From Escherichia coli (GTDB taxonomy: Bacteria > Pseudomonadota > Gammaproteobacteria > Enterobacterales > Enterobacteriaceae), in NCBI RefSeq assembly GCF_003334815.1, contig NZ_QOWO01000130.1: a stretch of 416 nucleotides of DNA; one strand, 5' to 3'. The notes beneath the pieces were generated by a model. The model made no database searches. It saw nothing but the letters and a program-made list of their open reading frames with translations, and had not been told where the DNA came from. The translations under genes were made by a program, and so were the position numbers. This document shows, piece after piece, positions 1 through 416 of the stretch (the first letter of the stretch is position 1; every line of letters starts with the position of its first letter).

Positions 1-416
1 GAAACCGGCTTTGACGGCCGCACACAGCGTTATCACCACGACCTGACCGGCAAACTTATCCGCAGCGAGGATGAGGGTCTGGTCACCCACTGGCACTATG
101 ACGAAGCAGACCGCCTCACGCACCGCACCGTGAAGGGTGAAACCGCAGAGCGGTGGCAGTATGACGAACGTGGCTGGCTGACAGACATCAGCCATATCAG
201 CGAAGGGCACCGGGTGGCGGTGCATTACAGGTATGATGAGAAAGGCCGGCTGACCGGTGAGCGTCAGACGGTGCATCACCCGCAGACGGAAGCACTGCTC
301 TGGCAGCATGAGACCAGACATGCGTACAACGCGCAGGGGCTGGCGAACCGCTGTATACCGGACAGCCTGCCCGCCGTGGAATGGCTGACCTACGGCAGCG
401 GTTACCTGGCAGGCAT
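1..416 (+). CDS. rhs: Rhs-family YD-repeat protein, internal fragment of the conserved core (partial at both ends)
   Basis: Frame +1 is open across all 138 codons. Frames +2 and +3 hit stops early (TGA at 41-43; TGA at 12-14), and two of the three reverse frames contain stops. The translation has repeated YD-type motifs at a spacing of about 21-31 residues: RYHHDLTGKLI (nt 28-60), WHYDEADRLT (91-120), WQYDERGWLT (154-183), YRYDEKGRLT (226-255), and degenerate HAYNAQGL (319-342) and LTYGSGYL (385-408). From memory the peptide closely resembles the E. coli-type Rhs core (rhsA/B/C-like), but the paralog cannot be assigned from this core-only fragment, so the symbol is given at family level. There is no Met codon in frame, consistent with an internal fragment. 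Confidence 0.93.

Follow-up and report, generated by a model that had tools for sequence, protein, structure and literature searches.

The DNA analyzed here, called the window below, is a stretch of 416 nucleotides that reads as protein-coding sequence from one end to the other. Its frame +1 is open throughout the 416 bases, with no stop in 138 codons, and the translation is built of short repeats. A motif scan located four clear YD motifs, 20–24 residues apart, at residues 11, 31, 52 and 76 of the window; in order, they read YHHDLTGKL, WHYDEADRL, WQYDERGWL and YRYDEKGRL, and after them comes a degenerate fifth unit, HAYNAQGLA. The same DNA is present in both rhsA and rhsB of E. coli K-12, with identity at all 416 of 416 bases. 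The window carries the following features.

1..416, + strand: internal rhs core coding-sequence fragment in frame +1, corresponding to RhsA/RhsB residues 667–804 plus 2 bases of codon 805; 100% identical to K-12 rhsA and rhsB.
16..75, + strand: YD repeat unit 1 (GRTQRYHHDLTGKLIRSEDE); YD motif at nt 31–57 from the motif scan, inside the Pfam RHS_repeat match at aa 14–46.
76..138, + strand: YD repeat unit 2 (GLVTHWHYDEADRLTHRTVKG); YD motif at nt 91–117 from the motif scan; Pfam RHS_repeat match at aa 14–46 (E = 3.9e-05) and TIGR01643 match at aa 13–50.
139..204, + strand: YD repeat unit 3 (ETAERWQYDERGWLTDISHISE); YD motif at nt 154–180 from the motif scan; Pfam RHS_repeat match at aa 54–88 (E = 3.9e-04).
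205..273, + strand: YD repeat unit 4 (GHRVAVHYRYDEKGRLTGERQTV); YD motif at nt 226–252 from the motif scan; Pfam RHS_repeat match at aa 54–88.
274..416, + strand: degenerate fifth unit (…HAYNAQGLANRCIP…) plus the beginning of the following strand (VEWLTYGSGYLAG), likewise predicted shell wall; within the RHS_core match and aligned with Tse5 residues 673–710, including the conserved WLTYG.G.L.
1..414, − strand: open antisense frame, no gene; part of a 190-aa mechanical ORF (L001 8893–9465) and a by-product of codon usage.

Only the codon-aligned antisense frame is likewise free of stops; the remaining four frames of the window contain 5, 9, 8 and 5 of them, and just 1.5% of mononucleotide shuffles leave frame +1 open. 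Four YD motifs were obtained in none of 5000 residue shuffles, for which the mean was 0.007. Tandem Repeats Finder detected no tandem repeat in the window DNA, so the YD periodicity is confined to the protein level. The first-pass annotation had described an uninterrupted frame +1 with tandem YD units, and both parts of that description hold.

Identity of the window and its place in rhsA and rhsB

The first-pass annotation had placed the window inside the core of an Rhs polymorphic-toxin gene and had proposed a profile search of its translation. This search returned RHS_core, Pfam RHS_repeat and TIGR01643. The NCBIfam RHS_core profile (NF041261) matches residues 1–138 with 282.6 bits (E = 6.6e-84) over profile positions 675–812 of 1261. 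This score lies under the curated whole-protein cut-off of 2000 bits because the window is a fragment of only 138 amino acids; full-length RhsA, with 2647.1 bits over profile positions 1–1261, is above it. TIGR01643 (YD_repeat_2x) matches the window with 20.1 bits, above its cut-off of 15.8, and there are two significant matches to Pfam RHS_repeat (PF05593), with E-values of 3.9e-05 and 3.9e-04. At the DNA level, the top megablast matches are 100% identical and annotated as RhsA or RhsB, K-12 MG1655, C600 and J53 being among the strains that carry them.

In MG1655, the window corresponds to positions 9001–9416 of the rhsA locus (L001), that is, to nt 1999–2414 of the rhsA gene and residues 667–804 of the 1377 of RhsA. 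Closure of the frame just outside the window would have spoken against an Rhs gene; in K-12 the frame instead continues as an ORF of 1377 codons (L001 7003–11136). RhsB of MG1655 is intact and 1411 amino acids long, and the window occupies the same residues, 667–804, in it. Both RhsA (WP_000015300.1) and RhsB (WP_000015298.1) belong to the rhsABCF subfamily (clade I of Jackson et al. 2009) and share the DNA, the frame and the repeats of the window. Inside the window the two do not differ; the tips that follow do, with Ntox34 and yibA in one case and the RhsB tip and yhhH in the other.

We consider the window to be an internal mid-core piece of an E. coli clade-I rhs gene of the rhsA/rhsB type, comprising four to five consecutive YD repeats of the predicted shell wall, with a probability of about 0.95. 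We infer this origin from DNA identity, and copies at least 99% identical are present in about 800 records of complete E. coli genomes (megablast).

A choice between rhsA and rhsB, on the other hand, is ruled out. The two genes lie on the same strand of the K-12 chromosome about 143 kb apart and are homologous over 3,689 nt starting at the ATG, a 3.7-kb direct repeat with 99.4% identity, 22 mismatches and no gaps. The window falls within 1,214 consecutive bases (L001 8896–10109) that are identical in both genes and therefore cannot be assigned to either of them. Moreover, since a single genome has these 416 bases ahead of two tips that are unrelated, the window cannot tell which tip follows. 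The base composition of the core sense strand is also distinctive: its AT skew is strongly positive (0.18–0.36; L001 8100–10500), unlike that of the flanking genes, and is probably a consequence of the amino-acid and codon composition of the repeat.

The rest of the gene and its neighborhood

Beyond the window, the K-12 genes have the architecture described for the family, with its core, its tip, the contrast in GC content and the displacement of tips (PMC2935791). The motif PxxxxDPxGL, which demarcates the core in Rhs toxin/immunity pairs (PMC3150448), occurs in RhsA as PVTNTDPLGL at aa 1238–1247 and lies within the Rhs_assc_core match (TIGR03696; aa 1170–1247, 83.2 bits). The end of the RhsA core reads DPIGL, 17 residues and DPLGL, which is DPxG-(18)-DPxG by the counting of Jackson et al. 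The DNA of rhsA and rhsB is near-identical until shortly 5′ of the DPLGL codons and diverges over the last few core codons; 3′ of DPLGL, the comparison of the two genes revealed no similarity. At the K-12 rhsA locus, the GC content drops from 0.60–0.64 in the core to 0.35–0.39 at the boundary with the tip, ranges from 0.32 to 0.39 over the tip and yibA, and is near 0.35 in most of the DNA downstream. The tip of RhsA matches Pfam Ntox34 (E = 3.6e-43), and Pfam RHS is matched in the same protein. In K-12, the core thus ends at the motif that the first-pass annotation had named, and the low-GC C-terminal extension that it had expected downstream is the Ntox34 tip (a drop from about 0.62 to about 0.36).

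The gene expected directly downstream is also there: yibA, encoding a HEAT-repeat protein, begins 21 nt after the rhsA stop codon, and at the second locus yhhH overlaps the end of rhsB. yibA occupies the position of an immunity gene, and neutralization is known from the literature (PMC3150448): in 1995, Vlazny and Hill reported that the K-12 RhsA tip is toxic and that the ORF downstream suppresses this toxicity (in the account given in PMC4436062).

Farther downstream of rhsA–yibA (L001 12029–14603) are two orphan core-end fragments, matching gene nt 3261–3731 (94%) and nt 3531–3713 (76.5%). The first of them encodes a DPQGL of its own as well as a different tip, and yibG (Sel1 repeat) comes next; after yibG come the second fragment and a frameshifted gene of the Imm57 family, a pseudogene. 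The orphan tip/immunity pairs anticipated by the first-pass annotation are therefore represented in K-12 by these core-end fragments with yibG and the Imm57 pseudogene. That annotation had also held that the downstream part of the locus might be novel. Its presence is confirmed by the Ntox34 tip, yibA and the orphan fragments of K-12, but for the exact sequence this part has already been characterized.

The rhsB locus of K-12 (L003) contains a further putative remnant. After yhhH there is a pseudogene (L003 9137–9487) annotated as 'lyase' or HEAT repeat, which over 399 nt shares 97.2% identity with L001 11105–11503, a segment that runs from the final 32 nt of the rhsA tip through the spacer into the 5′ part of yibA. 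The pseudogene is truncated beside an ISEc1 (yhhI) element. Judged by this match, it appears to be a tip-end/immunity remnant of the rhsA type that has been displaced and now lies within the rhsB locus.

Upstream, the first-pass annotation had suggested looking for genes of the vgrG, PAAR and eagR type. In the 7 kb upstream of both K-12 genes, vgrG, PAAR and eag genes are absent; the upstream neighbors are yibF/selAB for rhsA and nikR/nikA-E for rhsB. Within RhsA itself, the PAAR_motif match at aa 2–20 is non-significant (E = 0.18); aa 46–123 correspond to Pfam DUF6531 (E = 4.8e-18), and only about 45 residues precede this region. We accordingly reject a T6SS linkage of the K-12 rhsA and rhsB loci. 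Jackson et al. (PMC2935791) noted that E. coli is an exception to the vgr linkage that is common elsewhere. Such linkage marks the subset of T6SS effectors, not Rhs proteins as such.

Copies among E. coli genomes and alternative readings

Megablast detected close copies of the window in 3,882 of the 5,426 complete E. coli genomes searched; the median number per genome is three. When searched at blastn sensitivity, genomes have a median of six such places, which fits the more diverged rhs subfamilies described previously (PMC2935791). The features annotated under the matches are full Rhs proteins. At the other extreme, 1,524 of the 5,426 genomes have no copy of the core segment even at blastn sensitivity, and 15 of the places found at this sensitivity are plasmid-borne. 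In rhsB of strain ER1709, annotated as frameshifted, we observed a one-base deletion in a G-run (L002, about position 10680), about 20 codons before DPLGL; the same gene is intact in MG1655. Either a sequencing error in the homopolymer or a genuine inactivating mutation could account for the deletion.

We asked whether the window might be part of an orphan or relic core fragment that is silent, such as a displaced tip cassette or a pseudogene, and not of an expressed full-length rhs gene. Core fragments do occur downstream of the main gene at rhs loci (K-12; PMC2935791), some rhs copies are annotated as frameshifted, as in ER1709, and one match at blastn sensitivity spans window bases 250–416 only. 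However, the K-12 orphans retain only the two 3′ stretches of the gene given above, far 3′ of the window. In addition, coverage of the window is 80% or more in 3,877 of the 3,884 records that match, the features annotated under the matches are full Rhs proteins, and the frame is unbroken across the window. We regard such an origin as very unlikely and, for loci of the K-12 type, reject it, as the orphans stop short of the window region.

Even less probability attaches to the other two alternatives, both of which would add a second element to the coding sequence. One is that the antisense frame, which has no stop in 138 codons and belongs in K-12 to the 190-aa ORF listed above, encodes a real overlapping protein. 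This frame is codon-aligned, though, and stays open because the window has no TTA, CTA or TCA codons; every codon-order shuffle (100%) left it open. Five antisense ORFs longer than 100 aa are spread along the GC-rich part of the gene, as composition predicts, and the ORF in question has no NCBIfam match and no promoter-like site on either strand of the window. The codon-order shuffles, the codon census and the NCBIfam search all lead us to dismiss an antisense gene as a by-product of codon usage. The other alternative, that the coding sequence harbors a structured RNA or a regulatory element, could appeal only to an Rfam match to sR32, an archaeal C/D-box family, at window positions 229–277 of the + strand (16.3 bits, E = 0.043). 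This score is far under the gathering score of 40, however, the family is taxonomically implausible, and the protein-coding frame fully accounts for the conservation. A scan of the window for promoters and terminators detected no site resembling either. We therefore discount an embedded signal as well, the sub-threshold sR32 match at permissive Rfam E-values being judged a chance hit. The window is best read as an internal piece of the rhsA/rhsB core.

Predicted shell structure, recombination and significance

Several structures of Rhs proteins have been solved, and full-length RhsA matches a number of them. The best solved relative is Pseudomonas aeruginosa Tse5 (PDB 8cp6; E = 6.9e-128), and matches were also obtained to P. 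protegens RhsA (PDB 7q97; E = 3.4e-83), Acinetobacter Tse15 (PDB 8uy4; E = 1.1e-59) and the Salmonella bongori Rhs core (PDB 8qjd; E = 3.4e-54). The window itself aligns end to end with residues 577–710 of the Tse5 shell solved by cryo-EM (8cp6_B), with 66 bits and an E-value of 3.6e-17. In the solved Rhs proteins, YD repeats spiral into a closed cocoon whose ends are sealed by an N-terminal plug and a C-terminal aspartyl protease; the protease domain cuts the toxin, which is largely unfolded in the shell until delivery (PMC8765631, PMC10684867).

By analogy with these homologs, each YD repeat of the window would form a β-hairpin, and the repeats would spiral into the wall of a closed β-cocoon. 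[quoted passage not shown] In the studied homologs this domain acts as an aspartyl autoprotease, and in RhsA it may likewise free the variable C-terminal toxin inside the shell. The encapsulated toxin of RhsA would be the Ntox34 domain, with yibA directly downstream as its putative immunity gene. By homology, then, the window is predicted to encode four to five shell-wall hairpins that serve a structural purpose and have no catalytic or specificity role.

Tse5 has the YD-shell architecture predicted for RhsA, with an encapsulated C-terminal toxin that is released autoproteolytically (PMC10684867), although its match to the window is far weaker than that of the DNA-identical E. coli copies. The toxin of Tse5 is pore-forming, whereas that of E. 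coli RhsA is Ntox34. Furthermore, Tse5 is delivered by the T6SS (PMC10684867) and depends on VgrG (PMC4436062), whereas the K-12 rhs loci lack a vgrG neighbor. [quoted passage not shown] At its C-terminal end, the YD shell of Tc-toxin TcB/TcC (YenC2, TccC) and of metazoan teneurins has the same hyperconserved Rhs-associated core region as RhsA, whereas the capping domains and biology of these proteins differ from those of RhsA (PMC8765631). The matches of full-length RhsA to YenC2 (E = 1.4e-06) and to teneurin-like proteins (E = 1e-24) are confined to RhsA residues ~1147–1248, outside the window region.

At the level of the chromosome, the homology of rhsA and rhsB has been linked to RecA-dependent unequal crossing-over that duplicates glyS, the source of the name Rhs, 'rearrangement hot spot' (Lin, Capage and Hill 1984, as reported in PMC2935791). 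Judging from that literature and from homologs, the 3.7-kb direct repeat with its 99.4% identity would be a substrate for such crossing-over, and core homology of this kind has been proposed to drive the exchange of tips through recombination.

Nothing in the window is new; rhsA and rhsB have long been known. The Rhs family has been described from 1984 on, its toxin/immunity logic was established by 2011–2013 and its structure by 2013–2023. The only route to novelty would be an uncharacterized tip downstream. As an identical core precedes different tips within one genome, the window is compatible with a new toxin there, and it may derive from a strain of E. coli or a close relative in which an uncharacterized tip and immunity pair is joined to the invariant core. 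We think this unlikely, although clearly less so than the alternatives rejected above, and even if it were true, the window would remain known core.

As a piece of the rhsA/rhsB core, the window has two practical consequences: the core carries no information on the toxin tip of a strain, and reads from the 1,214-nt block cannot be placed uniquely, which affects mapping, assembly and variant calling. Beyond its correct annotation, the segment is of little importance in itself. The gene family to which it belongs was among the first repeated families to be described in E. coli, and the architecture and structure of this family are established, as is its part in competition between bacteria.
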